Of a stretch of DNA of 64,000 nt, positions 3,481 through 51,406 are shown piece by piece. Positions within the stretch are counted from its first letter, which is position 1. Each line of letters begins with the position of its first letter. This DNA is from Gammaproteobacteria bacterium (GTDB taxonomy: Bacteria; Pseudomonadota; Gammaproteobacteria; JABABF01), in assembly GCA_965237805.1 (NCBI GenBank), contig OZ250153.1, positions 1,588,382 to 1,652,381 on the forward strand, written 5' to 3'. The notes under the pieces are model-generated. The model ran no database searches, had not been told where the DNA came from, and worked only from the letters and a program-made list of their open reading frames with translations. The position numbers were made by a program, and so were the translations under genes.

Positions 3481-6400
3481 CTAGTTCGCCAAGAATTGGC
3501 TGATCGCCGCTGCTACCGCCGCCGTATCGCGTCCGGCCAGTGATGCGCCGGAGCCGCCGAGCAGCTCCGGCGGCGCGCCGCTCAGCTGAGCCAACACCAA
3601 CAGCAGATCGTCGCGGTCTTGGTTGCCGTCGCCGTTGACATCCAGTGCGCTGTCGGCGAGCAGGGAGCGGCTCAGCGCCAGCACGGTGGCGGGGTTGGCG
3701 CTGTCTGGCAGCGCGATGTTGTATACCATATCTACCGCCTCAAAGCCGCTCAGCATACGCAGTGCGATGACAAAGTCATCGGCGTCCCAAGCATCGTTCA
3801 TATTGGGGGTCAGCGGTGCGGCCTGCACCTGTTGCAATAGCCGATGCGCGTTGAGCCGCCGCCCGCTGGCCACATACTGCTGTGCGATGGGTGCGCCGAC
3901 GCCGATCTCGTAGAGTCGCAGGGCGGGCGTTTGGGCCTCGTTGTCGAAATTTCCCGGCAGGCTGAGGCTGAACACCAAGCGCAGGCCAGCGCTCAGCTGG
4001 CCGCTGGGGATGGCGCCAGTCAGCTGGCGTGATATCGCGGTGGTCGTGCTGATCGTCGTTGTGCTGAGCACGGTTTCATTGCCGCCGCTATCCAAGAGCG
4101 AAATGACCAGCCCATCGGCGATGGGAGCCGCTAATGGCCAGCCTGAGAACACGACGGTTACGCCAAACTGCGCCGCGCTGAGCCCGGACAGATCGAAGGG
4201 GGTGGAGACCAGTCGCAGGGTGCTGCTGCTGTGGTTGCCGCCAGCGGGGGCCAGCTGCCAGAAATAGTGCTTGCGTCCTCCCGCTGGCGGCAAGTCGCTG
4301 GCGCTGGCGATGTGCCAGCCAATCGCATCACTGCCCAGATCGCTCAGTGCGGCATCCCACGCCCCCGCATCGCTGCGCATATTGTCGTAGAAAGCATCGC
4401 CCACTTGCGGCAGGTAGTAGTCGCTACTGCCCGTGACCGTCGCCGCCAAGCTGGCGACACCATCGGCGCTCTGTAGCAAGCGGTGGCGCAGCTCGGCCGC
4501 CGCCATCGTCGGGCGCAGGCTCAGTGCTAGTGCGGCGGCACCAGCCACTTGCGGGGCGGCCATTGAGGTGCCGGTCCTGAGCTCGATAGCCACGGCGCTG
4601 GTAGCAGCGGTGGCCGCACCAAATTTGATAAATTGGATAAAGATATCGTCGGCACTATCTGTGTGACCGAAGATTCCCAGCTGCGCCCCCGTGGTGAAAA
4701 ATGTCGAGGGGACGGTCAAATACAAATTTATAAAGTTGCCTTTCTCCCACCAATTGAACACATCGTCCATCAGAATGATAGAAGCGTCTCCAAAATCGGC
4801 GGCTATGGAGTTGGCACCGGAGCGGGTCAGGCCGGAGTTGCTGTCCCCATCAGTGTCTGCGCTGAGCACGATAGTGAGCTCGTCATCGCTGTTGAACTCG
4901 AGGCGTCGCATAAAGAAGTGCAGTGCCACATGCTCTTCACCGACAAATTGGCTGAGATCAAAAGTCGGGCTGTGCAGATAGAAAGTGCCGGTGCTGGTCT
5001 TGCTGAGATTTCTGCCGTCGAAGGTGGTGATTGCATCGAAACCCTGATGTTCCCAGCCATTCAGCGAGCTGATGCTGCCGATATCCGCCGCGGCACTCAG
5101 CGCTGGATTTTGCCGTTCCAAACTGAGGATCAAGCTGCCGGGCGCGGCGATTGGCACGGCGCTGCTGCCGAAACTGCTGCTGCCGGCGAGCTGGTCTCTG
5201 AAGTTGCTGTTAGCGACCGCCAGCACATTGCGCAGTGGCTCCACCAGCGGGTAATTGCTGCCGTCGCCGTAGCTGGCGAGATAAGCCGCATCGCCCAACA
5301 GGCTGACATTGCTAGCGCTGTTGCCGGCGGAGGTGACGAATAGCACACCGCGCTGCTCCAGCGCAGCGATGGCATCGTACAGCGCCTGGCTGTAGCTGCC
5401 GCCGCCCCAGCTATTGTTGATCACGCGCAACGGGACCCCGCTGTCGACCATTGCCGCCGCATAGTTCAGGCAGGCTATCGCATCGCTGGTGAAGCCTCTG
5501 TTGACGGTGATGAAGCGCAGTATCATCAGGCTGAGCCGATGGTTGACGCCGACCACGCTCTTTTGATTGTCGCCGATGGCACCGGCGATGCCCGCCACAT
5601 GGCTGCCGTGGCCGTCATCGTCCCACGGCGTGCCGCTGGCGGCGGCGCTGCGGCGAGCGTTGGTGCCAACGCAGTCCGCGCCGTGCACATCGTCCACATA
5701 GCCGTTGCCGTCGTTGTCCACCCCGTCGTAGCTATTGTCCAACGGGTTGACCCACAGATTGGCGCGCAGCTCCTCGTGATCCAGCTGCGCGCCGCTGTCG
5801 AGTACGGCCATCACCACCGAGCTGCTACCGGTGCTGATAGCCCAAGCCTCCACGCTATCTATATCGGCAGCTGCGACGGTTAGACCAGCGATTGCGGCAC
5901 CGATGGAGCTGCTGCCGTCAGAGTTTTGGGTGACTATGATTGGGATCGATTGACCGGTGTTGTTGTGTCCCCAGAGGTAGCGGAAGTGGGCATCGTCAGG
6001 ACTTGCATGGTGCTGGACGATATAGTCCGGCTCGGCGTACTCCACCAGCCCGGCACGCTCCAGCACACGCGCCATCTCCGCTGCGTTGTGCCCCGCTGGC
6101 AGTCGCAGCACCGTCAGTTCGGTCGCCCCGTGCAGCTGGTTCAAAATGCCGATGCCGAAGCGCTGGTACAGCTCCTCAGCCCGCGCCTGCGCCCCGCTCG
6201 CGCCACCGGCAAAGCGCGCCAGCAACACGCCGGGGCGGTGTGCGGCTTGGTCGTTGATGGCGTGCTGCCGCGTGGCGGTCATACGCATCGGGATGGCCTC
6301 CCCACGTGGTGTCGGTGTCACCACTGCCGCCGCCCGCCCGCTCGCCGCCGCGGCTGGCCGCGGCTGGCCGGTGTCGTGGCTGGTGCTTTGAGCTTGGGGC

Positions 6401-6495
6401 TCGGGGGCGGGCAACGGCGCTCGCCATGCCACCACCGCAGCGATGACGAGGCCGACCAGCACGAACAGTGCCGCCAGTCGCCACTGCCCGCTCAT
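3481..6495 (-). CDS. Secreted subtilisin-like serine protease (peptidase S8) with propeptide, long C-terminal extension and a dockerin/EF-hand-like C-terminal module
   Basis: 1004-aa ORF. Subtilase triad motifs VLDSGAQLDH (Asp), HGSHVAGIAGA (His) and GTSMAAPQVAGAAAL (Ser). N-terminal hydrophobic anchor/signal (LAALFVLVGLVIAAVVA). C-terminal DVNGDGNQDRDDLLLVLAQL at nt 3583-3642, preceded by a weaker first segment NDAWDADDFVIALRML. Confidence 0.9.
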   Translation of the reverse strand: MSGQWRLAALFVLVGLVIAAVVAWRAPLPAPEPQAQSTSHDTGQPRPAAAASGRAAAVVTPTPRGEAIPMRMTATRQHAINDQAAHRPGVLLARFAGGASGAQARAEELYQRFGIGILNQLHGATELTVLRLPAGHNAAEMARVLERAGLVEYAEPDYIVQHHASPDDAHFRYLWGHNNTGQSIPIIVTQNSDGSSSIGAAIAGLTVAAADIDSVEAWAISTGSSSVVMAVLDSGAQLDHEELRANLWVNPLDNSYDGVDNDGNGYVDDVHGADCVGTNARRSAAASGTPWDDDGHGSHVAGIAGAIGDNQKSVVGVNHRLSLMILRFITVNRGFTSDAIACLNYAAAMVDSGVPLRVINNSWGGGSYSQALYDAIAALEQRGVLFVTSAGNSASNVSLLGDAAYLASYGDGSNYPLVEPLRNVLAVANSNFRDQLAGSSSFGSSAVPIAAPGSLILSLERQNPALSAAADIGSISSLNGWEHQGFDAITTFDGRNLSKTSTGTFYLHSPTFDLSQFVGEEHVALHFFMRRLEFNSDDELTIVLSADTDGDSNSGLTRSGANSIAADFGDASIILMDDVFNWWEKGNFINLYLTVPSTFFTTGAQLGIFGHTDSADDIFIQFIKFGAATAATSAVAIELRTGTSMAAPQVAGAAALALSLRPTMAAAELRHRLLQSADGVASLAATVTGSSDYYLPQVGDAFYDNMRSDAGAWDAALSDLGSDAIGWHIASASDLPPAGGRKHYFWQLAPAGGNHSSSTLRLVSTPFDLSGLSAAQFGVTVVFSGWPLAAPIADGLVISLLDSGGNETVLSTTTISTTTAISRQLTGAIPSGQLSAGLRLVFSLSLPGNFDNEAQTPALRLYEIGVGAPIAQQYVASGRRLNAHRLLQQVQAAPLTPNMNDAWDADDFVIALRMLSGFEAVDMVYNIALPDSANPATVLALSRSLLADSALDVNGDGNQDRDDLLLVLAQLSGAPPELLGGSGASLAGRDTAAVAAAISQFLAN

Positions 6496-7328
6496 GTCGT
6501 CGTCGAGGCTCGCTGCGAGTCGGGTCGATCGGTGCCGTAGACGGATTGCAGTAGCGGCAGCAGCTGGCTGTAGCAGGCCGGTGCGCCGCAGACGATCGCA
6601 TCGATCCCCAGCGGCTCATCGCTTCCCCACTGCCCGCGGATCAGTCCGCCAGCCTCCTGCACCAGCAAGGCACCGGCGGCCATATCCCAAGTTTTGAGCC
6701 CTACATCCCACATCGCGTCCAGCCGTCCGGCCGCCACATAGGCCAAGTCCAGTGCCGCCGAGCCACTGCGCCTCAGGGTCGCGCCGCGCTCGCCAGCGCG
6801 CAGCATGCAGCGTGCAGTTTCCTCGCTGTGATCGGCGCTGCGCTCACTGTCCAGCGAGCAGCTGCTGATCAGCGACGCGGCCAAGCCCTGCTGTTCGCTG
6901 ACCCGGATGCGGCGACCATCGAGCATTGCGCCGCCGCCGCGGCTAGCGCTGAATTCTTCATCCCGCATCACATCGAGTACGACCGCATGCTCTGTCTGGC
7001 CGTGGTGTAAACAGGCGATGGAGACGGCAAAATGGGGTAGCCCGTGCACAAAGTTGCCAGTGCCGTCCAGCGGGTCGATGACCCACTGCCAGGCAGTATC
7101 CTTGGGCAAAGAGCCGCGCTCCTCGCTGAGGATACTGTGTTGTGGGTAGCTCTCTTGCAGCTGCTCGATGATCTGATGCTCGGCCTCTATATCCACTGAG
7201 GTGACATAGTCGGCGGGGGATTTCTCGTAGACCGCCACCCGATCCAAATTGCGGAAAGAGCGCATGATCATGCGGGCGGCGTTGCGGGCGATGCGGCGTG
7301 CTATGACGAGTGTCGGTGCTACAGCCAT
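6492..7328 (-). CDS. suhB: Inositol monophosphatase family protein (SuhB)
   Basis: Motifs WVIDPLDGTGNFVHG and AAGALLVQEAGG. ATG at 7328 gives 278 aa; the upstream extension of ORF 6492..7703 looks non-coding. Divergent to trmJ as in E. coli. The stop overlaps the S8 protease start (ATGA at 6492-6495). Confidence 0.85.
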   Translation of the reverse strand: MAVAPTLVIARRIARNAARMIMRSFRNLDRVAVYEKSPADYVTSVDIEAEHQIIEQLQESYPQHSILSEERGSLPKDTAWQWVIDPLDGTGNFVHGLPHFAVSIACLHHGQTEHAVVLDVMRDEEFSASRGGGAMLDGRRIRVSEQQGLAASLISSCSLDSERSADHSEETARCMLRAGERGATLRRSGSAALDLAYVAAGRLDAMWDVGLKTWDMAAGALLVQEAGGLIRGQWGSDEPLGIDAIVCGAPACYSQLLPLLQSVYGTDRPDSQRASTTT

Positions 7329-7528
7329 CGCATATTCATCTGTTGTGCGCCAGTGGACATCTGCTGATCCCACTGCCTTTGCGCACCTGACCACCTGGTC
7401 GGTAGACGCGGGCGAAGAGGGCGGTAGTTTGGTGCTTCCCGCAAGCCGCTCCGCATTGTTGCTCGCCCCTTTCAGCGTGGCTAATGATAGCATTTTCAGC
7501 TGTGCAACCAAATATGGAGCCCAGAGCC

Positions 7529-8293: not shown

Positions 8294-8639
8294 GCCACAG
8301 CTGATTTGGGGTGCCTGTGCGCACTGCCTCGCCGCCCCAGCGCTTGCCCCATAAATGGCCATCTGTTAGACTAGAGCAATGTATGCTTACGATGCGTAGT
8401 GTGGCCACGAGCGATGTTTCTCGCGTGCTCCGCTCTCTGCAACAGCCGAGTTGATCGCGATGCGAACGGCAGCTGCTTTGTCTTTTGTTGTGGCGCTCAG
8501 GTGGCGAGTGGGTCGCTGTGGCATAAATCAACAATTATTTGCGCATTGCATACATGACAGCTAGCAGGTTACGAGGCTCCCCTTTGGCTTTTGCAGCTGG
8601 GCGGGAGCCACGGCACAGATTGGTTTTGGAGAATGGACC

Positions 8640-11132
8640 ATGAGATTGAAGCAGTTTGCTAAGCCGAAGTGGGTGGGGGTCAGTTCGCATTCGCAACTGA
8701 GTGCGGCTTCCCCGCGACGCGCCCGCGTCGGTCTGAGTTTGTTGTGGCGCTGCTGTTCGTCACCAAAGCGAGTGTTTTTCAGCGGCCTGTTATTGCTGGC
8801 AGCGCTGTATTCCGCTGTGGTTGCGCCCATCGCCGATGCCGCGACGACCGCGTCCTATCAAGGCGTGGTGTTGCCCTATGCGGATACGCCGGACTTCGAG
8901 GGAGCGGACGGGCTCATTGGCCAGACTTCCAATGCCCAGTCCGTGACGCTGCCCAGCGGCACCGCTGCCAGCTACCAAGTGGCCGAGAACAGCAGCTTTT
9001 CGCTGACCATTGGCTTTCGCATGACAGCCATCTCCCCCGAACCCACGACGATGACTGGCGAGATCAGATCTCTGACTTTCGAGCTGGTCTATTCCTCCGA
9101 CAGCCGCTTCGTGTTTGAGGGCCATGAAATCCTTGACAGCGCTGCCGTCAATACTGGTGATAGCTGGGAGGACTACAGTGATCTCACTGTCTCTGAAGAG
9201 ACTGGTAACGGCGGTAGCACTAGCGGGATTACCATCTCGGCCGCGGTGACTGGCAGTGACGAGACCAGCATCCTCTGCGGTAAATTTTGCCTGTGGCCTG
9301 CTTTGGTGCGGCTCAACTTCTCCGTCGGTGCGCTCGACAGTGCGTCTGAGGAGCTGGATTTTGATTTACAGAGCCGCGTGCTATCTGTCGTCCACACCTA
9401 CGGCGACTCCCCCGAGATCAGCTATCTCAGCAGCACCGCTGCCTTGGTGGTCACGCGGCCGACCGTTCTGCGTCTGCGCGATCTGTCCGACCCCTTGCTG
9501 GTGTCTGCTGAGGAGTTTGTTCGCGTCGAGGCAGCACTGGACAGCGACGGGGATGCACTCTACGGCGCCCCCAGCATTGGCGACTTTACTGTCTCTTTGA
9601 CTGCGACATCGACCGTTTCACTTGCTCCCAGCACCGCCAGCGGCGACAGCTTCAGCTTGGAGGTGCTGACAGCGACTGACGGCGAGCAGGCTTTGTTGAC
9701 ATTCACCGACAACGATCGTGCTCTCAGCGCCACGGCGACGGTGACACTGGATGTGGTGGCGACGGCGCTGACGGTATCGGCGCCGTCGACGGTGACATCG
9801 GGCGTGATCTTTGCGCTGACGGTGACGGGGATGGACAGCAATAGCAATGAGGACACGGCCTACAGCCGGTCGGCGGCGACGACGGTGACGGCTTCGGCGG
9901 GGACGCTGGTGGTGGAGTCGAGCACGGCGAGCAGTATTGATCTGCGTTTGAGCGAGGTGACGGACGGCGATACGGTAACGCTGACGGTGACGGATGGCAG
10001 CGTGTCGGGCACGGCTGATGTGGCGGTGAATGTGGTGGCGACAGCGCTGACGGTGAGTGCTTCACCGGATCCGGTGGTGTCGGGTCAGTCCTTCACGCTG
10101 ACGGTGACGGGAGTCGATGCTGATGGCGCGACGGACACGGGCTACAGCCGGTCGGCGGCGACGACGGTGACGGCTTCGGTGGGGACGCTGGTGGAGGAGT
10201 CGAGTACAGCGACCAGTATTGATCTGCGTTTGAGCGAGGTGGCGGACGGCGCTGATGTGACGCTGACGGTGACGGATGGCAGCGTGTCGGGCACGGCAGC
10301 TGTGACGGTGAATGTGGTGGCGACAGCGCTGACGGTGAGTGCTTCACCGGATCCGGTGGTGTCGGGTCAGTCCTTCACGCTGACGGTGACGGGAGTCGAT
10401 GCCGATGGCGCGACGGACACGGGCTACAGCCGGTCGGCGGCGACGACGGTGACGGCTTCGGTGGGGACGCTGGTGGAGGAGTCGAGTACAGCGACCAGTA
10501 TTGATCTGCGTTTGAGCGAGGTGGCGGACGGCGCTGATGTGACGCTGACGGTGACGGATGGCAGCGTGTCGGGCACGGCAGCTGTGACGGTGAATGTGGT
10601 GGCGACAGCGCTGACGGTGAGTGCTTCACCGGATCCGGTGGTGTCGGGTCAGTCCTTCACGCTGACGGTGACGGGAGTCGATGCTGATGGCGCGACGGAC
10701 ACGGGCTACAGCCGGTCGGCGGCGACGACGGTGACGGCTTCGGTGGGGACGCTGGTGGAGGAGTCGAGTACAGCGACCAGTATTGATCTGCGTTTGAGCG
10801 AGGTGGCGGACGGCGCTGATGTGACGCTGACGGTGACGGATGGCAGCGTGTCGGGCACGGCAGCTGTGACGGTGAATGTGGTGGCGACAGCGCTGACGGT
10901 GAGTGCTTCACCGGATCCGGTGGTGTCGGGTCAGTCCTTCACGCTGACGGTGACGGGAGTCGATGCCGATGGCGCGACGGACACGGGCTACAGCCGGTCG
11001 GCGGCGACGACGGTGACGGCTTCGGTGGGGACGCTGGTGGAGGAGTCGAGCACGGCGACCAGTATTGATCTGCGTTTGAGCGAGGTGGCGGACGGCGCTG
11101 ATGTGACGCTGACGGATGGCAGTGAGCTGTGA
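8640..11132 (+). CDS. Giant repeat protein, N-terminal fragment: signal-like peptide, ~360-aa unique region, first ~5 Ig-like units
   Basis: RBS-like GGAGAA 7 nt upstream of ATG 8640. Hydrophobic segment FFSGLLLLAALYSAVVAPIADA followed by ATT. The unique region ends at ~9720 where the 282-bp units begin. Confidence 0.8.
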   Translation: MRLKQFAKPKWVGVSSHSQLSAASPRRARVGLSLLWRCCSSPKRVFFSGLLLLAALYSAVVAPIADAATTASYQGVVLPYADTPDFEGADGLIGQTSNAQSVTLPSGTAASYQVAENSSFSLTIGFRMTAISPEPTTMTGEIRSLTFELVYSSDSRFVFEGHEILDSAAVNTGDSWEDYSDLTVSEETGNGGSTSGITISAAVTGSDETSILCGKFCLWPALVRLNFSVGALDSASEELDFDLQSRVLSVVHTYGDSPEISYLSSTAALVVTRPTVLRLRDLSDPLLVSAEEFVRVEAALDSDGDALYGAPSIGDFTVSLTATSTVSLAPSTASGDSFSLEVLTATDGEQALLTFTDNDRALSATATVTLDVVATALTVSAPSTVTSGVIFALTVTGMDSNSNEDTAYSRSAATTVTASAGTLVVESSTASSIDLRLSEVTDGDTVTLTVTDGSVSGTADVAVNVVATALTVSASPDPVVSGQSFTLTVTGVDADGATDTGYSRSAATTVTASVGTLVEESSTATSIDLRLSEVADGADVTLTVTDGSVSGTAAVTVNVVATALTVSASPDPVVSGQSFTLTVTGVDADGATDTGYSRSAATTVTASVGTLVEESSTATSIDLRLSEVADGADVTLTVTDGSVSGTAAVTVNVVATALTVSASPDPVVSGQSFTLTVTGVDADGATDTGYSRSAATTVTASVGTLVEESSTATSIDLRLSEVADGADVTLTVTDGSVSGTAAVTVNVVATALTVSASPDPVVSGQSFTLTVTGVDADGATDTGYSRSAATTVTASVGTLVEESSTATSIDLRLSEVADGADVTLTDGSEL

Positions 11133-11623
11133 CGGTGAATGTGGTGGCGACAGCGCTGACGGTGAGTGCTTCACCGGATCCGGTGGTGTCGGGTCACGGA
11201 CGGTGACGGGAGTCGATGCCGATGGCGCGACGGACACGGGCTACAGCCGGTCGGCGTGGCTTCGGTGGGGACGCTGGTGGAGGAGTCGAGCACGGCGACC
11301 AGTATTGATCTGCGTTTGAGCGAGGTGGCGGACGGCGCTGATGTGACGCTGACGGTGACAGATGGCAGCGTGTCGGGCACGGCAGCTGTGACGGTGAATG
11401 TGGTGGCGACAGCGCTGACGGTGAGTGCTTCACCGGATCCGGTGGTGTCGGGTCAGTCCTTCACGCTGACGGTGACGGGAGTCGATGCCGATGGCGCGAC
11501 GGACACGGGCTACAGCCGGTCGGCGGCGACGACGGTGACGGCTTCGGTGGGGACGCTGGTGGAGGAGTCGAGTACAGCGACCAGTATTGATCTGCGTTTG
11601 AGCGAGGTGGCGGACGCGCTGAT

Positions 11624-23600: not shown

Positions 23601-26600
23601 CGGACACGGGCTACAGCCTGTCGAATGTGACGGTGACGGCCTCGTCGGGGACGATCTCGGGTCAAAGTCAGACCAGCACCGGCTTCGAGCTGAGTCTGAG
23701 CGGGGTGGCGGACGGCACGATGGTGACACTGACGGCGACGGATAGCGTGCTGTCGTCTGCAGACACGGTGGCTGTGGCGGTGAATGTGGTGGCGACGGCG
23801 CTGACGGTATCGGCACTGGCGACGGTGGTGTCGGGCGCGAGCTTTGCGCTGACGGTGACGGGAGTCGATGCAGCTGGCGCGACGGACACGGGCTACAGCC
23901 TGTCGAATGTGACGGTGACGGCCTCGACCGGGACGCTGACGACGGCGCAGACCAGCACTGGCTTCGAGCTGAGTCTGAGCGGGTTGGCTGACGGCACGAT
24001 GGTGACACTGACGGCGACGGATAGCGTGCTGTCGTCTGCAGACACGGCTGATGTGACGGTGGATGTGGTGGCGACGGCGCTGACGGTGTCGGCACCGGCG
24101 ACGGTGGTGTCGGGTGCGAGCTTTGCGCTGACAGTGACGGGAGTCGATGCAGCTGGCGCGACGGACACGGGCTACAGCCTGTCGAATGTGACGGTGACGG
24201 CCTCGTCGGGGACGATTTCGGGTCAAAGTCAGACCAGCACTGGCTTCGAGCTGAGTCTGAGCGGGGTGGCGGACGGCACGATGGTGACACTGACAGCGAC
24301 GGATAGCGTGCTGTCGTCTGCAGACACGGTGGCTGTGGCGGTGAATGTGGTGGCGACGGCGCTGACGGTATCGGCACTGGCGACGGTGGTGTCGGGCGCG
24401 AGCTTTGCGCTGACGGTGACGGGAGTCGATGCAGCTGGCGCGACGGACACGGGCTACAGCCTGTCGAATGTGACGGTGACGGCCTCGACCGGGACGCTGA
24501 CGACGGCGCAGACCAGCACTGGCTTCGAGCTGAGTCTGAGCGGGTTGGCTGACGGCACGATGGTGACACTGACGGCGACGGATAGTGTGCTGTCGTCTGC
24601 AGACACGGCTGATGTGACGGTGGATGTGGTGGCGACGGCGCTGACGGTGTCGGCACCGGCGACGGTGATGTCGGGTGCGAGCTTTGCGCTGACGGTGACG
24701 GGCGTCGATGCAGCTGGCGCGACGGACACGGGCTACAGCCTGTCGAATGTGACGGTGACGGCCTCGTCGGGGACGATTTCGGGTCAAAGTCAGACCAGCA
24801 CCGGCTTCGAGCTGAGACTGAGCGGGTTGGCGGACGGCACGATGGTGACACTGACGGCGACGGATAGCGTGCTGTCGTCTGCAGACACGGCTGATGTGAC
24901 GGTGGATGTGGTGGCGACGGCGCTGACGGTATCGGCACCGGCGACGGTGGTGTCGGGCGCGAGCTTTGCGCTGACGGTGACGGGCGTCGATGCAGCTGGC
25001 GCGACGGACACGGGCTACAGCCTGTCGAATGTGACGGTGACGGCCTCGTCGGGGACGATCTCGGGTCAAAGTCAGACCAGCACCGGCTTCGAGCTGAGTC
25101 TGAGCGGGGTGGCGGACGGCACGATGGTGACACTGACGGCGACGGATAGCGTGCTGTCGTCTGCAGACACGGTGGATGTGGCGGTGAATGTGGTGGCGAC
25201 GGCGCTGACGGTCTCGGCACCGGCGACGGTGGTGTCGGGTGCGAGCTTTGCGCTGACGGTGACGGGAGTCGATGCAGCTGGCGCGACTGACACGGGCTAC
25301 AGCCTGTCGAATGTGACGGTGACGGCCTCGACCGGGATGCTGACGACGGCGCAGACCAGCACTGGCTTCGAGCTGAGTCTGAGCGGGTTGGCTGACGGCA
25401 CGATGGTGACACTGACGGCGACGGATAGTGTGCTGTCGTCTGCAGACACGGCAGCTGTGACGGTGGATGTGGTGGCGACGGCGCTGACGGTATCGGCACC
25501 GGCGACGGTGGTGTCGGGTGCGAGCTTTGCGCTGACGGTGACGGGCGTCGATGCAGCTGGCGCGACGGACACGGGCTACAGCCTGTCGAATGTGACGGTG
25601 ACGGCCTCGTCGGGGACGATTTCGGGTCAAAGTCAGACCAGCACCGGCTTCGAGCTGAGTCTGAGCGGGGTGACTGATGGCACGATGGTGACACTGACGG
25701 CGACGGATAGCGTGCTGTCGGCTGCAGACACGGTGGATGTGGCGGTGAATGTGGTGGCGACGGCGCTGACGGTATCGGCACCGGCGACGGTGGTGTCGGG
25801 CGCGAGCTTTGCGCTGACGGTGACGGGCGTCGATGCAGCTGGCGCGACGGACACGGGCTACAGCCTGTCGAATGTGACGGTGACGGCCTCGACCGGGACG
25901 CTGACGACGGCGCAGACCAGCACTGGCTTCGAGCTGAGTCTGAGCGGGTTGGCTGACGGCACGATGGTGACACTGACGGCGACGGATAGTGTGCTGTCGT
26001 CTGCAGACACGGCTGATGTGACGGTGGATGTGGTGGCGACGGCGCTGACGGTCTCGGCACCGGCGACGGTGGTGTCGGGTGCGAGCTTTGCGCTGACAGT
26101 GACGGGAGTCGATGCAGCTGGCGCGACGGACACGGGCTACAGCCTGTCGAATGTGACGGTGACGGCCTCGTCGGGGACGATTTCGGGTCAAAGTCAGACC
26201 AGCACCGGCTTCGAGCTGAGTCTGAGCGGGTTGGCGGACGGCACGATGGTGACACTGACGGCGACGGATAGCGTGCTGTCGTCTGCAGACACGGCTGATG
26301 TGACGGTGGATGTGGTGGCGACGGCGCTGACGGTGTCGGCACCGGCGACGGTGGTGTCGGGTGCGAGCTTTGCGCTGACAGTGACGGGAGTCGATGCAGC
26401 TGGCGCGACGGACACGGGCTACAGCCTGTCGAATGTGACGGTGACGGCCTCGTCGGGGACGATTTCGGGTCAAAGTCAGACCAGCACCGGCTTCGAGCTG
26501 AGTCTGAGCGGGTTGGCGGACGGCACGATGGTGACACTGACGGCGACGGATAGCGTGCTGTCGTCTGCAGACACGGCTGATGTGACGGTGGATGTGGTGG

Positions 26601-29600
26601 CGACGGCGCTGACGGTGTCGGCACCGGCGACGGTGGTGTCGGGTGCGAGCTTTGCGCTGACAGTGACGGGCGTCGATGCAGCTGGCGCGACGGACACGGG
26701 CTACAGCCTGTCGAATGTGACGGTGACGGCCTCGTCGGGGACGATCTCGGGTCAAAGTCAGACCAGCACCGGCTTCGAGCTGAGTCTGAGCGGGGTGACG
26801 GACGGCACGATGGTGACGCTGACGGCGACGGATAGTGTGCTGTCGTCCGCAGACACGGCTGATGTGGTGGTGAATGTGGAGGCGACGGCGCTGACGGTCT
26901 CGGCACCGGCGACGGTGGTGTCGGGCACGTCCTTCACGCTGACGGTGACGGGAGTCAATTCAGCTGACGAGACGGACACGGACTACAGCCTGTCGAATGT
27001 GACGGTGACGGCCTCGACCGGGATGCTGACGACGGCGCAGACCAGCACCGGCTTCGAGCTGAGACTGAGCGGGTTGGCGGACGGCACGATGGTGACGCTG
27101 ACGGCGACGGATAGCGTGCTGTCGTCTGCAGACACGGCAGCTGTGACGGTGGATGTGGTGGCGACAGCGCTGACGGTCTCGGCACCGGCGACGGTGACGT
27201 CGGGCGTGATCTTTGCGCTGACGGTGACGGGCGTCGATGCAGCTGGCGAGACGGACACGGACTACAGCCTGTCGAATGTGACGGTGACGGCCTCGACAGG
27301 GATGCTGACGACGGCGCAGACAAGCACCGGCTTCGAGCTGAGACTGAGCGGGTTGGCGGACGGCACGATGGTGACGCTGACGGCGACGGATAGCGTGCTG
27401 GTGTCTACAGACATGGTGGATGTGACGGTGCAGGCGGCGGCGGCATCCTTGCTGGTGGATGCACCGGCGACGGTGGTGTCTGGCGCTGACTTCACGGTGC
27501 AGTTGACGGCTTTGGACGCTGGGGACAACGTCATTCCAAGCCATGATCTATCAGCGGCGACGGCCACCGTCTCGGTGGGGACTCTGAGCTTGGTCTCGCG
27601 GACGGCGGACACGCTGACTCTACAGTTGCGCGGTGTGTCAGATAGTGAATCGGCGATTTTGACAGTGATGGAGGGTGACGCCATCGGCACTGACACGGTG
27701 ACGGTGAATGTGGTCGCCACGGCGCTGTCACTGGTGAGCAATGTGGCAGAGATAACGGCAGGGGCGCAGACAGGCGTCACCGTCACTGGCATCGACGCTG
27801 ATGGCGCGATGGACACGGGCTACAGCCTGTCATTGGCACCCCAGATCACGGCCTCGATGGGCGTGACGGTCACTGGTATTACGGTATTCCCCACCGGTAG
27901 TGGTAGCCACCTCGTGCAATTCACCCTGTCGGGTGCGCCAGATGGCAGCGAATTGTTGCTGACGATGACGGCTACCCCTCAGAATGGTGGGCTGGTCGGC
28001 AGTACATCCGTGACTTTGAATGTGGTGGCGACGGCGCTGAGGCTATCGGCACCGGCGACGGTGGTGTCGGGCACGACAGCCACGCTGACGGTGACGGGAG
28101 TCGATGCAGCTGGCGCGACGGACACGGGCTACAGCCTGTCGAATGTGACGGTGACGGCCTCGACCGGGACGCTGACGACGGCGCAGACAAGCACTGGCTT
28201 CGAGCTGCGTCTGAGCGGCTTGGCGGATGGCACGATGGTGACGCTGACGGCGACGGATAGTGTGCTGCTGTCTGCAGACACGGTGGCTGTGACGGTGGAT
28301 GTGGTGGCGACGGCGCTGACGGTATCGGCACCGGCGACGGTGGTGTCGGGCCAGCTCTTCACGCTGACGGTGACGGGAGTCGATGCCGATGGCGCGACGG
28401 ACACGGACTACAGCCTGTCGACGGCCACGGTGACGGCTTCGGCGGGGGCGCTGGTGGAAGAGTCGAGCACGGCGAGCAGTATTGATCTGCGTTTGAGCGA
28501 GGTGTCCGACGGCGCTGATGTGACGCTGACGGTGACGGATGGCAGCGTGTCGGGCACGGCTGAGGTGGCGGTGGATGTGGTGGCGACGGCGCTGTCGCTG
28601 AGTGCCTCAGTGGATCCGGTAGTTTCCGGCCAGCTCTTCACGCTGACGGTGACGGGAGTCGATGCCGATGGCGCGACGGACACGGGCCACAGCCTGTCGT
28701 CGACGGCAACGGTGACGGTTTCGGCGGGGACGATCGCGGATTTCAGTCAGACGGGCAACGAGTTGAGCTTGAGTCTGAGCGGTGTGACGGACGGTGCGAC
28801 AGCGACGCTGACGGTGGCGGCCGATGGCTTGTCGGGCACGGTGGCTGTGACGGTAGATGTGGTGGCGACGGCGCTGAGGCTGAGCGCCTCAGTGGAGCCG
28901 GTGTTATCTGATCGCAGCTTCCTGCTGACGGTTGCTGGGGTCGATGCGGATGACGCGACGGACACGGGCTACAGCCTGTCGGCGTCGGCCACGGTGACGG
29001 CGTCGGCGGGGACGCTGGTAGAGGCTTCGCGCGCGGGGCAGGTCATTGGCCTGAGTTTGAGTGGCTTGGCCGCTGGCTCGACGGCAACGGTGACGGTGAT
29101 CGACGATGGCTTGGAGGGTGAGCTCGAGCTGACAGTGGCGGCGGTGGCGGTGGTCTCCTTGGATGTGGCTGCACCTGAGACGGTGGTGTCTGGGGCGGCG
29201 TTCACGGTGACAGTGACGGCCCGCGATGCCAATGCTGTGGTGATTTCGGATGCGGATCTGTCGGCGGTGACGGCGGCTGTGTCGGTCGGGACGCTGTCGG
29301 CGTTCTCGCTGAGCGGGAACAACACACTGAGTATGGAGTTGCGAGCTGTGCCGGACGACACGACATCGACGCTGACGGTGAGTTTGGGCTCAGTCAGCAG
29401 TGCGGACACGGTGACGGTGGATGTGGTGGCGACAGCGCTGACGGTAGCGGCACCGGCGACAGTGGTGTCGGGCCAGTCCTTCACGCTGACGGTGACGGGA
29501 GTCGATGCGGATGGCGCGACGGACACGGGCTACAGCCTGTCGACGGCCACGGTGACGGCTTCGGCGGGGACGCTGGTGGAGGAGTCGAGCACGGCGACCA

Positions 29601-30046
29601 GTATTGATCTGCGTTTGAGCGGGGTGTCCGACGGCGCTGTGGTGACGGTGACGGTGACGGCCGATGGCTTGTCGGGCACGGCTGATGTGGCGGTGGATGT
29701 GGTGGCGACGGCGCTGTCGGTCTCGGCACCGGCGACGGTGGTGTCGGGCGCGAGCTTTGCGCTGACGGTGACGGGAGTCGATGCGAATGACGCGACGGAC
29801 ACGGGCTACAGCCTGTCGACGGCGGCGGTGTCGGCTTCGCCGGGGACGATCGCGGATCTGAGTCAGACGGGCAACGAGTTGAGTGTGAGTGTGAGCGGGG
29901 TGACGGACGGTGCGACAGCGACGCTGACGGTGGCGGCCGATGGCTTGTCGGGCACGGCAGTTGTGGCGGTGGATGTGGTGGCGACGGCGCTGTCGGTGAG
30001 CGCCTGCACCGGAGCCGGTGGTGTCGGGTCAGTCTCTTCACGCTGA
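11624..30046 (+). CDS. Giant repeat protein, main fragment (6140 aa, ~65 Ig-like units of at least 8 subtypes)
   Basis: 18.4-kb uninterrupted frame. It consists entirely of 93-97-aa units such as VVATALTVSASPDPVVSGQSFTLTVTGVDADGATDTGYSRSAATTVTASVGTLVEESSTATSIDLRLSEVADGADVTLTVTDGSVSGTAAVTVN. Confidence 0.85.
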   Translation: MTLTVTDGSVSGTAAVTVNVVATALTVSASPDPVVSGQSFTLTVTGVDADGATDTGYSRSAATTVTASVGTLVEESSTATSIDLRLSEVADGADVTLTVTDGSVSGTAAVTVNVVATALTVSASPDPVVSGQSFTLTVTGVDADGATDTGYSRSAATTVTASVGTLVEESSTATSIDLRLSEVADGADVTLTVTDGSVSGTAAVTVNVVATALTVSASPDPVVSGQSFTLTVTGVDADGATDTGYSRSAATTVTASVGTLVEESSTATSIDLRLSEVADGADVTLTVTDGSVSGTAAVTVNVVATALTVSASPDPVVSGQSFTLTVTGVDADGATDTGYSRSAATTVTASAGTLVEESSTATSIDLRLSEVADGADVTLTVTDGSVSGTAAVTVNVVATALTVSASPDPVVSGQSFTLTVTGVDADGATDTGYSRSAATTVTASVGTLVEESSTATSIDLRLSEVADGADVTLTVTDGSVSGTAAVTVNVVATALSLSASVEPVLSDRSFLLTVAGVDADGATDTGYSLSAMATVTASAGTLVEDSRAGQVIGLSLSGLAAGSTALLTVIDDGLEGQLELTVAAVAVVSLDVAAPETVVSGAAFTVTVTARDANAVVISDADLSAATAAVSVGTLSAFSLSGNNTLSMELRAVPDDTTSTLTVSLGSVSSTDTVTVDVVATVLTVSAPETVVSSQTFTLTVTGVDADSATDTGYSRSVTAMVTASAGTLVEESSTATSIDLRLSEVADGADVTLTVTDGSVSGTAAVTVNVVATALTVSASPDPVVSGQSFTLTVTGVDADGATDTGYSRSAATTVTASAGTLVEESSTATSIDLRLSEVADGADVTLTVTDGSVSGTAAVTVNVVATALTVSASPDPVVSGQSFTLTVTGVDADGATDTGYSRSAATTVTASVGTLVEESSTATSIDLRLSEVADGADVTLTVTDGSVSGTAAVTVNVVATALALSASVEPVLSDRSFLLTVAGVDADGATDTAYSLSATAMVTASAGTLVEDSRAGQVIGLSLSGLAAGSTVLLTVIDDGLEGELELTVAAVAVVSLDVAAPETVVSGAAFTVTVTARDANAVVISDADLSAATAAVSVGTLSAFSLSGNNTLSMELRAVPDDTTSTLTVSLGSVSSTDTVTVDVVATVLTVSAPETVVSSQTFTLTVTGVDADSATDTGYSRSVTAMVTASAGTLVEESSTATSIDLRLSEVADGADVTLTVTDGSVSGTAAVTVNVVATALTVSASPDPVVSGQSFTLTVTGVDADGATDTGYSRSAATTVTASAGTLVEESSTATSIDLRLSEVADGADVTLTVTDGSVSGTAAVTVNVVATALTVSASPDPVVSGQSFTLTVTGVDADGATDTGYSRSAATTVTASVGTLVEESSTATSIDLRLSEVADGADVTLTVTDGSVSGTAAVTVNVVATALSLSASVEPVLSDRSFLLTVAGVDADGATDTGYSLSAMATVTASAGTLVEDSRAGQVIGLSLSGLAAGSTALLTVIDDGLEGQLELTVAAVAVVSLDVAAPETVVSGAAFTVTVTARDANAVVISDADLSAATAAVSVGTLSAFSLSGNNTLSMELRAVPDDTTSTLTVSLGSVSSTDTVTVDVVATVLTVSAPETVVSSQTFTLTVTGVDADSATDTGYSRSVTAMVTASAGTLVEESSTATSIDLRLSEVADGADVTLTVTDGSVSGTAAVTVNVVATALTVSASPDPVVSGQSFTLTVTGVDADGATDTGYSRSAATTVTASVGTLVEESSTATSIDLRLSEVADGADVTLTVTDGSVSGTAAVTVNVVATALTVSASPDPVVSGQSFTLTVTGVDADGATDTGYSRSAATTVTASVGTLVEESSTATSIDLRLSEVADGADVTLTVTDGSVSGTAAVTVNVVATALTVSASPDPVVSGQSFTLTVTGVDADGATDTGYSRSAATTVTASVGTLVEESSTATSIDLRLSEVADGADVTLTVTDGSVSGTAAVTVNVVATVLTVSAPETVVSSQTFTLTVTGVDADGATDTGYSRSAATTVTASVGTLVEESSTATSIDLRLSEVADGADVTLTVTDGSVSGTAAVTVNVVATALTVSASPDPVVSGQSFTLTVTGVDADGATDTGYSRSAATTVTASVGTLVEESSTATSIDLRLSEVADGADVTLTVTDGSVSGTAAVTVNVVATALTVSASPDPVVLGQSFTLTVTGVDADGATDTGYSRSAATTVTASVGTLVEESSTATSIDLRLSEVADGADVTLTVTDGSVSGTAAVTVNVVATALALSASVEPVLSDRSFLLTVAGVDADGATDTAYSLSATAMVTASAGTLVEDSRAGQVIGLSLSGLAAGSTALLTVIDDGLEGQLELTVAAVAVVSLDVAAPETVVSGVAFTVTVTARDANAVVISDADLSAATATVSVGTLSEFSLSGNNTLSMELRAVPDDTTAMLTVSLGSVSSADTVTVNVVATVLTVSAPETVVSSQTFTLTVTGVDADSATDTGYSRSVTAMVTASAGTLVEESSTATSIDLRLSEVADGADVTLTVTDGSVSGTAAVTVNVVATALTVSASPDPVVSGQSFTLTVTGVDADGATDTGYSRSAATTVTASAGTLVEESSTATSIDLRLSEVADGADVTLTVTDGSVSGTAAVTVNVVATALTVSASPDPVVSGQSFTVTVMGVDADGAEDTDYSLSAGATVVASAGTLEEDSRTTDVFTLRLNEVADGTMVTLTVTDGSVSGTADVAVNVVATALALSASVEPVLSDRSFLLTVAGVDADGATDTDYSLSATATVTASAGTLVEDSRAGQVIGLSLSGLAAGSTALLTVIDDGLEGQLELTVAAVAVVSLDVAAPETVVSGAAFTVTVTARDANAVVISDADLSAATAAVSVGTLSAFSLSGNNTLSMELRAVPDDTTSTLTVSLGSVSSTDTVTVDVVATALSVAAPATVVSGQLFTLTVTGVDEDDATDTGHSLSTATVSAAPGEIADLSQTGNELSVSVSRATDAETVTLTVAAGGLSGTAAVVVDVVATVLTVAAPETVVAGASFALTVMGVDADSATDTDYSLSSTATVTAAAGTLLPVTRTPTGNGFGGLSLSVVSDGDVVTLTVTDGVLSSAGTADVEVDVVATELTVAAPAMVVAGASFALTVTGVDADSATDTDYSLSSTATVTASAGTLLPVTRTPTGNGFVGLSLSVVSDGDVVTLTVTDGVLSSADTADVEVDVVATVLALSASVEPVLSDRSFLLTVAGVDADGATDTGYSLSATATVTASAGTLVEASRAGQVIGLSLSGLAAGSTALLTVIDDGLEGQLELTVAAVAVVSLDVAAPETVVSGAAFTVTVTARDANAVVISDADLSAATAAVSVGTLSEFSLSGNNTLSMELRAVPDDTTSTLTVSLGSVSSADTVTVNVVATALSVAAPATVVSGQLFMLTVTGVDADDATDTGHSLSTATVSAAPGAIADLSQRGNELSVSVSGATDAETVTLTVAAGGLSGTAAVVVDVVATVLRLEPSQDPVNGGSPFTLTVTGVDADDATDTDYSLSATATVTASAGTLVEDSRTTAGFELNLSGVGDGTLVTLTVTDGALSNTLDVTVQAAAASLLVAAPATVVSGADFTVQLTALDAGDNVIPNHNLSAAQATASVGNLILVSQTTDTLTLQLRGVSDSASAVLTVMEGSASGTDTVAVDVVATALSVSAPETVVSGASFALTVTGVDADDATDTGYSLSTATVSAAPGAIADLSQMGNELSVSVSGVTDGATATLTVAADGLSGTAAVAVNVEATALTVSAPETVVSGTSFTLTVTGVNSADETDTDYSLSNVTVTASTGMLTTVQTSTGFELRLSGLADGTMVTLTATDSVLSSADTADVVVNVEATALTVSAPETVVSGTSFTLTVTGVNSADETDTDYSLSNVTVTASTGMLTTVQTSTGFELRLSGLADGTMVTLTATDSVLSSADTAAVAVNVVATALTVSAPATVVSGASFALTVMGVDAAGATDTGYSLSNVTVTASSGTISGQSQTSTGFELSLSGVADGTMVTLTATDSVLSSADTVAVAVNVVATALTVSALATVVSGASFALTVTGVDAAGATDTGYSLSNVTVTASTGTLTTAQTSTGFELSLSGLADGTMVTLTATDSVLSSADTADVTVDVVATALTVSAPATVVSGASFALTVTGVDAAGATDTGYSLSNVTVTASSGTISGQSQTSTGFELSLSGVADGTMVTLTATDSVLSSADTVAVAVNVVATALTVSALATVVSGASFALTVTGVDAAGATDTGYSLSNVTVTASTGTLTTAQTSTGFELSLSGLADGTMVTLTATDSVLSSADTADVTVDVVATALTVSAPATVMSGASFALTVTGVDAAGATDTGYSLSNVTVTASSGTISGQSQTSTGFELRLSGLADGTMVTLTATDSVLSSADTADVTVDVVATALTVSAPATVVSGASFALTVTGVDAAGATDTGYSLSNVTVTASSGTISGQSQTSTGFELSLSGVADGTMVTLTATDSVLSSADTVDVAVNVVATALTVSAPATVVSGASFALTVTGVDAAGATDTGYSLSNVTVTASTGMLTTAQTSTGFELSLSGLADGTMVTLTATDSVLSSADTAAVTVDVVATALTVSAPATVVSGASFALTVTGVDAAGATDTGYSLSNVTVTASSGTISGQSQTSTGFELSLSGVTDGTMVTLTATDSVLSAADTVDVAVNVVATALTVSAPATVVSGASFALTVTGVDAAGATDTGYSLSNVTVTASTGTLTTAQTSTGFELSLSGLADGTMVTLTATDSVLSSADTADVTVDVVATALTVSAPATVVSGASFALTVTGVDAAGATDTGYSLSNVTVTASSGTISGQSQTSTGFELSLSGLADGTMVTLTATDSVLSSADTADVTVDVVATALTVSAPATVVSGASFALTVTGVDAAGATDTGYSLSNVTVTASSGTISGQSQTSTGFELSLSGLADGTMVTLTATDSVLSSADTADVTVDVVATALTVSAPATVVSGASFALTVTGVDAAGATDTGYSLSNVTVTASSGTISGQSQTSTGFELSLSGVTDGTMVTLTATDSVLSSADTADVVVNVEATALTVSAPATVVSGTSFTLTVTGVNSADETDTDYSLSNVTVTASTGMLTTAQTSTGFELRLSGLADGTMVTLTATDSVLSSADTAAVTVDVVATALTVSAPATVTSGVIFALTVTGVDAAGETDTDYSLSNVTVTASTGMLTTAQTSTGFELRLSGLADGTMVTLTATDSVLVSTDMVDVTVQAAAASLLVDAPATVVSGADFTVQLTALDAGDNVIPSHDLSAATATVSVGTLSLVSRTADTLTLQLRGVSDSESAILTVMEGDAIGTDTVTVNVVATALSLVSNVAEITAGAQTGVTVTGIDADGAMDTGYSLSLAPQITASMGVTVTGITVFPTGSGSHLVQFTLSGAPDGSELLLTMTATPQNGGLVGSTSVTLNVVATALRLSAPATVVSGTTATLTVTGVDAAGATDTGYSLSNVTVTASTGTLTTAQTSTGFELRLSGLADGTMVTLTATDSVLLSADTVAVTVDVVATALTVSAPATVVSGQLFTLTVTGVDADGATDTDYSLSTATVTASAGALVEESSTASSIDLRLSEVSDGADVTLTVTDGSVSGTAEVAVDVVATALSLSASVDPVVSGQLFTLTVTGVDADGATDTGHSLSSTATVTVSAGTIADFSQTGNELSLSLSGVTDGATATLTVAADGLSGTVAVTVDVVATALRLSASVEPVLSDRSFLLTVAGVDADDATDTGYSLSASATVTASAGTLVEASRAGQVIGLSLSGLAAGSTATVTVIDDGLEGELELTVAAVAVVSLDVAAPETVVSGAAFTVTVTARDANAVVISDADLSAVTAAVSVGTLSAFSLSGNNTLSMELRAVPDDTTSTLTVSLGSVSSADTVTVDVVATALTVAAPATVVSGQSFTLTVTGVDADGATDTGYSLSTATVTASAGTLVEESSTATSIDLRLSGVSDGAVVTVTVTADGLSGTADVAVDVVATALSVSAPATVVSGASFALTVTGVDANDATDTGYSLSTAAVSASPGTIADLSQTGNELSVSVSGVTDGATATLTVAADGLSGTAVVAVDVVATALSVSACTGAGGVGSVSSR
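13088..17308 (+). repeat. Higher-order repeat: three copies of a 1407-bp (5-domain, B-C-D-A-A) super-unit
   Basis: Boundaries at 13088, 14495, 15902 and 17309 are exactly 1407 bp apart. Copies 1 and 3 give identical antisense ORF translations (13351..13641 = 16165..16455). Confidence 0.9.
22943..27430 (+). repeat. Block of 16 consecutive units of the YSLSNVTVTAS subfamily, partly organised as a 561-bp (2-domain) super-unit
   Basis: Unit starts at 23501, 24062 and 24623 (561-bp spacing). Antisense ORF ladder at 23332/23893/24454 and 23668/24229/24790. Confidence 0.9.
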
Positions 30047-30048
30047 CG

Positions 30049-30952
30049 GTGACGGGAGTCGATGCGGATGACGCGACGGACACGGGCTACAGCCTGTCGA
30101 CGGCGGCAACGGTGACGGCTTCGGCGGGGACGATCGCGGATCAGAGTCAGACGGGCGACGAGTTGAGCTTGAGTCTGAGCGGGGTGACGGACGGCGCTGT
30201 GGCGACGCTGACGGTGGCGGCCGATGGCTTGTCGGGCACGGTTGATGTGACGGTAGATGTGGTGGCGACGGCACTGAGGCTGGTGGCCTCGCAGGATCCG
30301 GTCAATAGGGACACATCCTTCACGCTGACGGTGACGGCAGTCGATGCAGCTGGCGCGACGGACACGGGCTACAGCCTGTCGGCGTCGGCCACGGTGACGG
30401 CTTCGGCGGGGACGCTGGTGGAGGATTCGCGCGCGGCGACCAGTATTGAGCTGCGTTTGAGCGGGGTGTCCGACGGCGATGTGGTGACGCTGACGCTGAC
30501 GGATGGCGTGCTGTCGAGCACGCTGGCTGTGACGGTAACTGCGCGCAATCAGCTCGATATCGATCTCGACGGACGATGTCGACCAAACGGATGCCTTGAT
30601 GATGTTCCGCACGCTGGGCTTTACGGTGTCCTTCCGCACCTTGATCAAGGACGGCACCTTGTCGGGTTTCGTGGTGGCTGGCAGCCCGGCCCTGCTCGAC
30701 GAAGAGCTCAATATCATCGAGCGTATTGAGGCTCTTGAGGCCAGCTCCAACAGTGTCTTGGACATTGATCTCGACGGCGATGTCGACCAAACGGATGCCT
30801 TGATGATGTTCCGCACACTGGGCTTTACGGCGTCCTTCCGCACCTTGATCAAGGACGGCACCTTTTCTGGTGTCGTGGTGGCTGGCATTCCGGCCCTGAT
30901 CGACGAAGAGCTCAATATCATCGTGCGCATCGAGCAGCGCGCCGGCCTCTGA
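30049..30952 (+). CDS. Giant repeat protein, C-terminal fragment: last 2 Ig-like units plus two 68-aa dockerin/EF-hand-like modules (1-nt indel near 30572 splits it into ORFs 30049..30729 and 30596..30952)
   Basis: Continues the repeat consensus (LTVTGVDADDATDTGYSLS...). LDIDLDGDVDQTDALMMFRTLGF occurs twice. The first copy reads gacggAcgatgtc against gacggcgatgtc in the second copy. Confidence 0.65.
30553..30949 (+). repeat. Two tandem ~204-bp (68-aa) C-terminal modules, each starting with an EF-hand/dockerin-like loop
   Basis: LDIDLDGDVDQTDALMMFRTLGFT(V/A)SFRTLIKDGT... starts at 30553 and 30758. Confidence 0.85.
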
Positions 30953-30993
30953 GCTAGCGCCGCGCCGTAGCCTCCTCGCGAGCTGGTGGGCGC

Positions 30994-44113: not shown

Positions 44114-44134
44114 GACCCGGCAGGGCGGTGGCGC
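43850..44134 (+). repeat. Left direct repeat (3' end of the ALDH gene plus 21 nt downstream)
   Basis: gctgcgccgaccgagcagaggccatcgccc...gcgcttggactgagacccggcagggcggtggcgc recurs at 47061..47324. Confidence 0.9.
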
Positions 44135-44218
44135 ATCCCCGTTCTCCCCATCCTCTAGCTACCGGATGGCTTCATCTTAGCACGGCCAGCTGATTGATCA
44201 GAGCTTCCTTAAGTGGTT

Positions 44219-48468: not shown

Positions 48469-51406
<2,938 letters not shown>

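Follow-up and report, generated by a model that had tools for sequence, protein, structure and literature searches.

The window analysed here, a stretch of 64,000 nucleotides on contig OZ250153.1 of a gammaproteobacterial assembly, contains a giant gene whose product, once its reading frame is repaired, starts with a Sec-type leader, is made almost entirely of near-identical repeats and ends in a tandem pair of calcium-loop modules; a related pair closes an S8 subtilase encoded nearby. The locus may, with a confidence slightly short of even, code for a lineage-specific Sec-exported giant surface fibre, the C-terminal pair being a portable calcium-dependent docking tag common to the fibre and the protease. 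The encoded product comprises, in order, a beta-rich N-terminal domain of ~200 amino acids (aa), one divergent and 74 near-identical immunoglobulin (Ig)-like domains of 94 aa, and the tandem Ca2+-binding modules; the subtilase, 2 kb away, carries a diverged copy of the fibre's tandem pair at its end. A single module consists of a dockerin-type 'F-hand' (DxDxDGxxxxxD plus an amphipathic helix) and of a 40-45-aa extension that closes with a second helix; paired modules probably pack together, as EF-hands usually do, to form one domain with two calcium ions. Through the pair, a calcium-dependent link to a shared receptor on the surface or in the matrix would hold the fibre, the protease and (in a relative) also a small Ig protein, and the docking tag would place the protease near the fibre. 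Calcium binding, docking and the co-localisation of protease and fibre are what we infer from sequence features, and a functional analogy of the pair with dockerin is proposed.

Both modules of the giant protein have DIDLDGDVDQTD as their loop and ALMMFRTLGF as its helix, then ~30 aa of extension and EELNIIxRIE as the second helix; module 1 reads LDIDLDGDVDQTDALMMFRTLGF, followed by an extension that closes with the helix EELNIIERIEAL. An earlier reading of the same DNA, the initial annotation, had reported two copies of LDIDLDGDVDQTDALMMFRTL at this terminus. Their positions hold, since LDIDLDG...DVDQTDALMMFRTL begins at 30553 and again at 30758; the first copy, however, does not exist as assembled and is readable only minus a 1-nucleotide (nt) insertion at ~30572, which gives GACGGACGATG versus GACGGCGATG in copy 2. 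The insertion sits within the first dockerin-like loop, and therefore C-terminal copy 1 exists only after frame correction. The S8 protease terminates, as had been stated, in DVNGDGNQDRDDLLLVLAQL (aa 952-971 of open reading frame (ORF) 3481..6495, minus strand, nt 3583-3642), and the weaker segment seen upstream of it corresponds to NDAWDADDFVIALRML (nt 3751-3798). Its module b has a canonical loop and helix, LDVNGDGNQDRDDLLLVLAQL, then the extension and a terminal helix, AAVAAAISQFLAN; module a, which scores below zero against the hidden Markov model (HMM) of the loop, has a degenerate calcium loop (TPNMNDAWDADD) and, after it, the helix FVIALRML. A loop with Asp or Asn at positions 1, 3 and 5 and Asp at position 12, followed by a helix, is thus found twice as DIDLDGDVDQTD and once as DVNGDGNQDRDD.

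Within the window, such loops are confined to these two genes. Two matches to D.[DN].[DN]G.{5}D exist in the six frames of the 64 kb, each within the last 70 codons of the S8 or the giant gene, against 0.07 occurrences on average in codon shuffles; a third copy is the frame-broken giant copy 1. An HMM of loop plus helix finds nothing else over the window, the next best score being 8.9 bits. When a profile of eight modules was compared with all PDB sequences, 1ohz_B ranked first (E 2e-7 to 4e-7) and the top 14 matches were all dockerins; the double dockerin of a serine protease, 8x39, gave E values of 4e-5 to 8e-6, and calmodulin EF-hands E of at least 0.04. These matches span only positions 2-24 of the module profile, that is one calcium loop and its helix. 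Dockerin_1 is the sole Pfam family matched by the modules, in 4 of the 8 members and always below threshold, with a best E of 0.01 for single modules. The loop HMM detects no cryptic second calcium loop in the latter half of the modules, and neither pair has the two-segment, short-linker layout of a dockerin module of ~60-70 aa. At the level of sequence, the term 'dockerin-type F-hand' is supported for the modules and the term 'dockerin module' is not, because only one loop and helix matches and the rest of the module is without counterpart; the EF-hand loop and helix of a dockerin repeat recognised by the initial annotation accordingly stands as a similarity (1ohz_B, E 2e-7) and not as a canonical dockerin. 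NCBIfam gave no informative match for the C-terminal pair or the giant N-terminus, a word-index homolog search with the pair returned nothing, and nothing was found in the literature for the 'ALTDGLL' motif, which is related to the module, or for PDB 8X39.

The relatives of the giant protein are extremely few. An exhaustive phmmer search with its N-terminal 308 aa against 1.84 billion representatives recovered only P0001 (40% identity) and P0002 (34%), each with this N-terminal domain ahead of similar repeats. A single ENA metagenome is the source of both, and their contigs are 3x long-read assemblies that are also frame-broken. Word-index homolog searches with the giant N-terminal domain and with the alignment of the three N-terminal homologs (A1) returned nothing, and nothing was found in a metagenome scan with the giant N-terminal alignment. 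The locus of P0002, L067, is syntenic with the window: the S8 protease gene comes first, then suhB, trmJ and the giant gene, with 80% identity for TrmJ and 58% for S8; the C-terminus of the L067 protease is lost at the contig end. The L067 giant gene, too, closes with the tandem pair, there reading LDVDSTGDVETVDATLILRVL... and LDLDLNGFTNPVDATLMLRVL... and sharing 40% identity with the pair of the window, and is directly followed by a small gene whose Ig-like product carries the pair as well (Table 1), with a sub-threshold Dockerin_1 match (E 0.0095). The window is without a counterpart of this small gene, and rmlD, at 30994, comes after the giant gene.

A metagenome scan with the pair extended its distribution to a protein of 1187 or 1970 aa found in four loci, L068-L071, with a full reading of L069 and L070. 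This protein belongs to a marine Pseudomonadales metagenome-assembled genome (MAG) and is labelled 'hypothetical protein' by NCBI; it has a leader, 3-4 related beta domains, TSP3 and leucine-rich repeats (LRR), and a C-terminal tandem pair with 45% identity. Just upstream, a 171-aa protein with the same NCBI label contains one such beta domain and gives a sub-threshold match to Pfam Cohesin (E 0.005, 17.5 vs 24.1 bits); the marine beta domains have no PDB match, and hhalign aligns them in register to a real cohesin with a probability of 0.7%. Wherever the modules were found, they form a tandem at the very C-terminal end of the protein. Because it is present on the giant fibre, the S8 protease, the small L067 Ig protein and the marine LRR/TSP3 protein, the tandem pair is, judging from its carriers, a portable unit at the extreme C-terminus of unrelated exported proteins.

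Several observations weigh against a docking tag shared by fibre and protease. The dockerin profile suggested as a check by the initial annotation remains below the gathering score on the giant C-terminus (Dockerin_1, 18.3 vs 22.9 bits, E 0.0027) and gives no match at E <= 1 on the tail of the S8 protease. Loop spacing is 68 aa in the giant protein and 52 aa in S8, versus ~33 in dockerin, and each module bears a 40-45-aa extension that has no dockerin counterpart; the AlphaFold model of the tandem pair, built from the two window sequences, has a predicted local distance difference test (pLDDT) score of 36 and is unusable for fold or pairing. Neither the window nor L066 or L067 yielded a receptor or a cohesin. 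Moreover, synteny around housekeeping genes at such divergence may reflect vertical inheritance and is no proof of a link between protease and fibre, and the giant gene as assembled cannot be translated as one protein.

The tandem modules could instead be partner-less calcium caps, folding only outside the cell and stabilising C-termini or aiding export like RTX blocks, an explanation that is possible, if on the unlikely side. It agrees with the empty partner search, with the fact that only a generic calcium loop and helix are conserved with known proteins, with extensions that differ strongly from protein to protein, and with a very acidic fibre whose Asp-rich loop in each repeat suggests a general dependence on calcium. 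However, dockerins outrank all other EF-hand proteins in the PDB profile search, and the strict pairing at the extreme C-terminus of unrelated exoproteins across lineages looks more like a functional tag than like a stabiliser.

The state of the giant gene raises a second alternative, a decaying pseudogene from which no assembly of any kind would be made in this organism. The single giant ORF assumed by the initial annotation does not exist, since indels split the span 8640-30952 into five ORFs (8640..11132, 11166..11627, 11624..30046, 30049..30729 and 30596..30952), and at least four separate sites break the frame, one of them inside the first calcium loop. Nevertheless decay is unlikely: indels aside, 22 kb are open in one of three frames and the repeats are still near-identical; seven deletions in 150 nt (11109-11257), scored against neighbouring repeats that are near-identical apart from them, resemble a local consensus failure; every neighbouring gene examined is intact; and the ortholog contigs are low-coverage long-read assemblies with comparable breaks. 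The clustering of the indels in near-identical repeats, the intact neighbours and the similar breaks in the low-coverage relatives make errors in the consensus of a repeat-rich assembly, rather than decay, the most likely origin of the frame breaks.

Once frame-repaired, the giant product is very acidic and rich in Thr, Val, Ser and Ala, with 8% Asp and 0.1% Lys. The number of ~74 Ig-like spacers given by the initial annotation agrees with the 74.0 copies counted by Tandem Repeats Finder, and the repeat HMM finds ~75 copies; the Ig-like nature of the spacers is borne out less firmly. The repeat profile, built from 23 sequences, has FdeC (4e9l_A) as its best PDB match (E 0.0055), with the signature 'F.L.V.A.D..GN' in register, the other matches being antibody domains. 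No Pfam Big_* family matches the repeats, Invasin_D3 appears in 1 of the 23 (E 0.04), and the Ig-type matches are weak only. The fold is likely Ig-like, without assignment to a named family, and the FdeC similarity is weak evidence that the 94-aa units are invasin/FdeC-like Ig domains. The divergent first repeat is tied to the array by hhalign, with a probability of 95.7% between columns 202-298 of alignment A1 (aa 270-371 of the giant protein) and the repeat profile; a repeat-HMM match at aa 60-152 (44 bits) was rejected as compositional, since hhalign links only aa 270-371 to the repeat.

An Asp-rich loop, GVDADGATDTGY, is present in every 94-aa repeat, and the stalk repeats may themselves bind calcium, by analogy with other giant Ig-repeat adhesins. 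The array also has a higher-order arrangement: in the large ORF 11624-30046 a block of 5 units (469 aa) recurs several times in the first half, and 2 units alternate over aa 3961-5084. Runs of identical units suggest a recent expansion by unequal recombination, or collapse or expansion in the assembly. Long antisense ORFs of up to 1200 aa cross the array (20466-31443), for example 23304-26906 on the minus strand; these are by-products of G-rich, stop-poor repeats (GC skew ~+0.27) and not genes.

At the other end of the protein, a signal-peptide-like N-terminus is found in all three family members. The leader of the window protein is unusually long, with ~45 residues ahead of the hydrophobic core (8640-8700), and holds KPKWVGVSS, faintly reminiscent of a motif in the extended signal peptides of proteins secreted by type V systems; the corresponding region (ESPR) has no Pfam match in the giant leader, and the motif is missing in the homologs. 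Type I secretion was rejected, the leader being of Sec type and no RTX motif (GG.G.D) occurring anywhere in the giant protein; two-partner secretion was rejected as well, in view of the lack of a match to its TPS domain and of a TpsB neighbour. The domain that follows the leader carries the conserved motifs GFRM, ELLD..A.STG..W and LCGxFCxWP...R..F.V.AL (alignment A1). An AlphaFold model from the three sequences is all-beta, with ~11 strands before the first Ig domain, at low confidence (pLDDT 51, predicted template modelling score 0.43). A Foldseek search of the PDB with this poor model gave nothing at E < 0.02 and template modelling (TM) scores of at most 0.23; its matches are sandwiches and jelly rolls, with no barrels.

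An arrangement similar to that of inverse autotransporters is distinctly unlikely; here the N-terminal domain would serve as anchor or translocator in the outer membrane, the Ig array would be the exported stalk and the calcium pair a distal adhesive tip ~75 domains from the cell, and the protease would bear a tip module of this kind to find the target of the fibre. The order of a Sec-type leader, an all-beta domain of ~200 aa with ~11 long strands and an Ig array would suit it, as would the lack of RTX or type I secretion features and the fact that FdeC, itself an inverse autotransporter, is the solved protein closest to the repeat. Yet ~200 aa are short for a 12-stranded barrel plus linker, the Foldseek matches are not barrels, and the domain has no match to the Pfam barrel family of inverse autotransporters at E <= 10 nor a sequence match at E <= 10 in the PDB, which includes the intimin and invasin barrels.

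The initial annotation had instead seen a cohesin-like strand pattern in this N-terminal region, and had envisaged a self-polymerising or protease-recruiting scaffold. The motifs quoted for it sit at 8994-9326, but the similarity is an impression that no test supports. A divergent cohesin binding either its own C-terminal pair, to give head-to-tail polymers, or the pair of the protease, to give decorated fibres, is very improbable: the domain is all-beta, of about the right order of size with ~11 predicted strands, and kept with the fibre in all three family members, and the marine tagged protein with its beta domains and 171-aa neighbour implies that the tag and cohesin-like modules can co-occur, but none of the N-terminal domains of the window protein, P0001 and P0002 matches Pfam Cohesin at E <= 10, the profile of the three finds nothing at E <= 10 in a PDB that holds many cohesins, hhalign gives 0.03% against CipA cohesin-2 (a query verified as identical to 1OHZ_A) and 1.1% against the marine cohesin-looking domains, whose HMM reaches only E > 2 in hmmsearch, no cohesin is among the Foldseek matches of the low-confidence model, and the ~205 aa with a conserved CxxxC are larger than, and unlike, cohesins of ~140-150 aa. 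By the criterion set in the initial annotation, the cohesin proposal is refuted at the HMM level; the low-confidence predicted structure gives it no backing, and a scaffold assembled through an N-terminal cohesin is left unsupported.

Table 1. Features of the locus and of related loci (positions are those of the window unless a locus is named).
Feature	Position	Strand	Remarks
S8 subtilase gene	3481..6495	minus	1004 aa; Pfam Peptidase_S8 E 4e-34
S8 C-terminal module b	3484..3648	minus	aa 950-1004; loop HMM 29.0 bits
S8 C-terminal module a	3649..3807	minus	aa 897-949; aligns with the other modules
Giant surface-protein gene	8640..30952	plus	~7,430 codons if frame repaired; five ORFs as assembled
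N-terminal leader	8640..8843	plus	Sec-type hydrophobic core (FFSGLLLLAALYSAVVAPIADA/A), read from sequence; start codon uncertain
Unique N-terminal beta-rich domain	8835..9455	plus	aa 66-272; conserved in three family members
First, divergent Ig-like repeat	9447..9752	plus	aa 270-371; repeat HMM 46 bits
Repeat array	9751..30536	plus	74.0 copies of a 282-nt (94-aa) unit (Tandem Repeats Finder)
Deletion cluster	11109..11257	plus	seven deletions of 2-11 nt, 42 nt in total; makes stop codons
Second small-indel group	11615..11650	plus	shifts the reading frame for the next 18 kb
Two frame shifts, ~30003 and ~30036	30003..30040	plus	...SVSA / PAPEPVVSGQS / FTLTVTG...
Giant C-terminal module 1	30553..30757	plus	68 aa; broken by 1-nt insertion at ~30572
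Giant C-terminal module 2 and stop codon	30758..30952	plus	64 aa; loop HMM 38.7 bits
Small L067 gene	L067 17846-18931		directly 3' of the giant gene; leader, two Ig-like repeats, tandem dockerin-like pair
171-aa secreted protein and tagged protein	L070 4183-4698 and 4785-8348; L069 1834-2349 and 2436-8348		

The tagged protease of the window belongs to the Peptidase S8 family, on the basis of the family HMM match and of its Asp, His and Ser catalytic motifs. These are complete (VLDSG at aa 231, HGSHVAG at aa 296, NNSWG at aa 360 and GTSMAAP at aa 642) and, judged by them, the subtilase is an active enzyme. Its N-terminus has a hydrophobic signal or anchor, and the propeptide is of fervidolysin type (Pfam Fervidolysin_NPro-like, E 3e-4). 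A beta-rich insert of ~180 aa (aa 455-640) is visible by eye between the oxyanion Asn and the catalytic Ser, and a similar-looking second beta-rich region follows the catalytic domain at ~aa 700-890 (...YLHSPTFDLSQF... vs ...LVSTPFDLSGL...); both are without a Pfam match. A genome scan with the S8 protease found distant catalytic-domain relatives in other phyla only and no close genome, and an exact look-up of its sequence gave no record. The S8 start codon shares 4 nt with the suhB stop codon (6492-6495, minus strand); because of this overlap the two genes are probably co-transcribed and translationally coupled. The giant gene comes after trmJ, on the strand opposite to S8 and suhB, with a gap of 346 nt.

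Elsewhere in the window, 23S and 5S rRNA genes lie on the plus strand at 48469-51626; no 16S rRNA was found in the 5.4 kb searched upstream of the 23S gene and no tRNA genes in the 64 kb, and the rRNA genes appear unlinked. An AT-rich, ORF-poor island at 44100-45900, flanked by an aldehyde dehydrogenase gene and by the rRNA region, has a GC content of 0.40-0.47, versus ~0.65 for the remaining window; Rfam gives no match there, and the repeats it contains are short and at chance level only.

Among known systems, type I dockerins (Clostridium thermocellum Xyn10B, PDB 1OHZ chain B; Pfam PF00404) resemble the modules of the window in the 12-residue calcium loop with Asp or Asn at positions 1, 3, 5 and 12, in the amphipathic helix that follows it, in the presence of two segments per unit, and in their C-terminal location on secreted enzymes and on a repeat-built scaffold. 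They differ from the window modules, which are sub-threshold in Pfam, are spaced by 68 aa instead of ~33, bear the 40-45-aa extension and have no cognate cohesin found; unlike cellulosomal hosts, the host, to judge from suhB-trmJ and prfB-lysS synteny, looks like a high-GC gammaproteobacterium, and the locus has no sign of polysaccharide-degrading enzymes.

Modules resembling dockerins are already on record outside cellulosomes (Peer et al. 2009, PMID 19025568, cited by PMC10066038), and so are 'dockerin-type' giant proteins of Omnitrophota (bioRxiv 10.1101/2023.11.21.568195). In bacteria without a cellulosome, dockerin-type calcium loops are reported on very large repeat-rich, presumably adhesive surface proteins, for which a role in adhesion has been proposed (PMC10066038; bioRxiv 10.1101/2023.11.21.568195). 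Differently from the Omnitrophota-type giants, in which TSP3, discoidin and beta-helix regions are mixed, the stalk of the window protein is a homogeneous Ig array, with one tandem pair at the extreme C-terminus that has its own extension and is common to a protease and, in a relative, to a small protein. The serine protease with a double dockerin (PDB 8X39/8X3A) also combines a protease with dockerin-type calcium segments; however, that chain has four canonical segments with normal spacing, whereas in the window protease one segment is canonical and the other degenerate, and both have a long extension.

Inverse autotransporters such as intimin, invasin and FdeC, with their Big_1 arrays, share with the window protein a Sec leader, an N-terminal beta-rich region and a long Ig array; unlike them, it has no barrel-family match, only a marginal repeat similarity (E 0.0055) and a calcium pair in place of a lectin-like tip. 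LapA, SiiE and MpIBP are giant RTX adhesins secreted by type I systems, and in LapA a dedicated protease controls release. Their acidic stalks of near-identical Ig-like repeats, several thousand residues long and likely calcium-dependent, are comparable to that of the window; conversely, the Sec-type leader, the absence of GGxGxD repeats and the absence of adjoining type I secretion genes set the window protein apart. Giant Ig-repeat adhesins with associated proteases are thus already familiar. What is new here is the variant of the module: one F-hand with its extension, arranged in tandem, confined to the C-terminus, lacking annotation, and common to a fibre, a protease and other exoproteins.

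A wider proposal would make the pair a so far unrecognised module for docking on exoproteins of Gram-negatives, acting in a surface assembly of cohesin-dockerin type outside cellulosomes. In the lineage of the window it would tie the fibre of ~75 Ig domains, the subtilase and a small Ig protein to one receptor, which could be the conserved CxxxC N-terminal domain of the fibre as a new receptor fold; as a whole this is quite unlikely. A cohesin-dockerin-type system in Gram-negatives is possible, a tentative lead that comes from the marine MAG and not from the window.

If the tag were only a calcium cap, the locus would be a further example of a giant Ig-repeat adhesin encoded beside a protease; in either case the fibre family is extremely rare, with 2 relatives among 1.84 billion representative proteins. 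If the docking module is real, it would define a module missed by Pfam and NCBI annotation and offer a handle for finding its receptor, and it would mean that Gram-negatives use dockerin-style, calcium-dependent docking to decorate very long surface fibres with enzymes.

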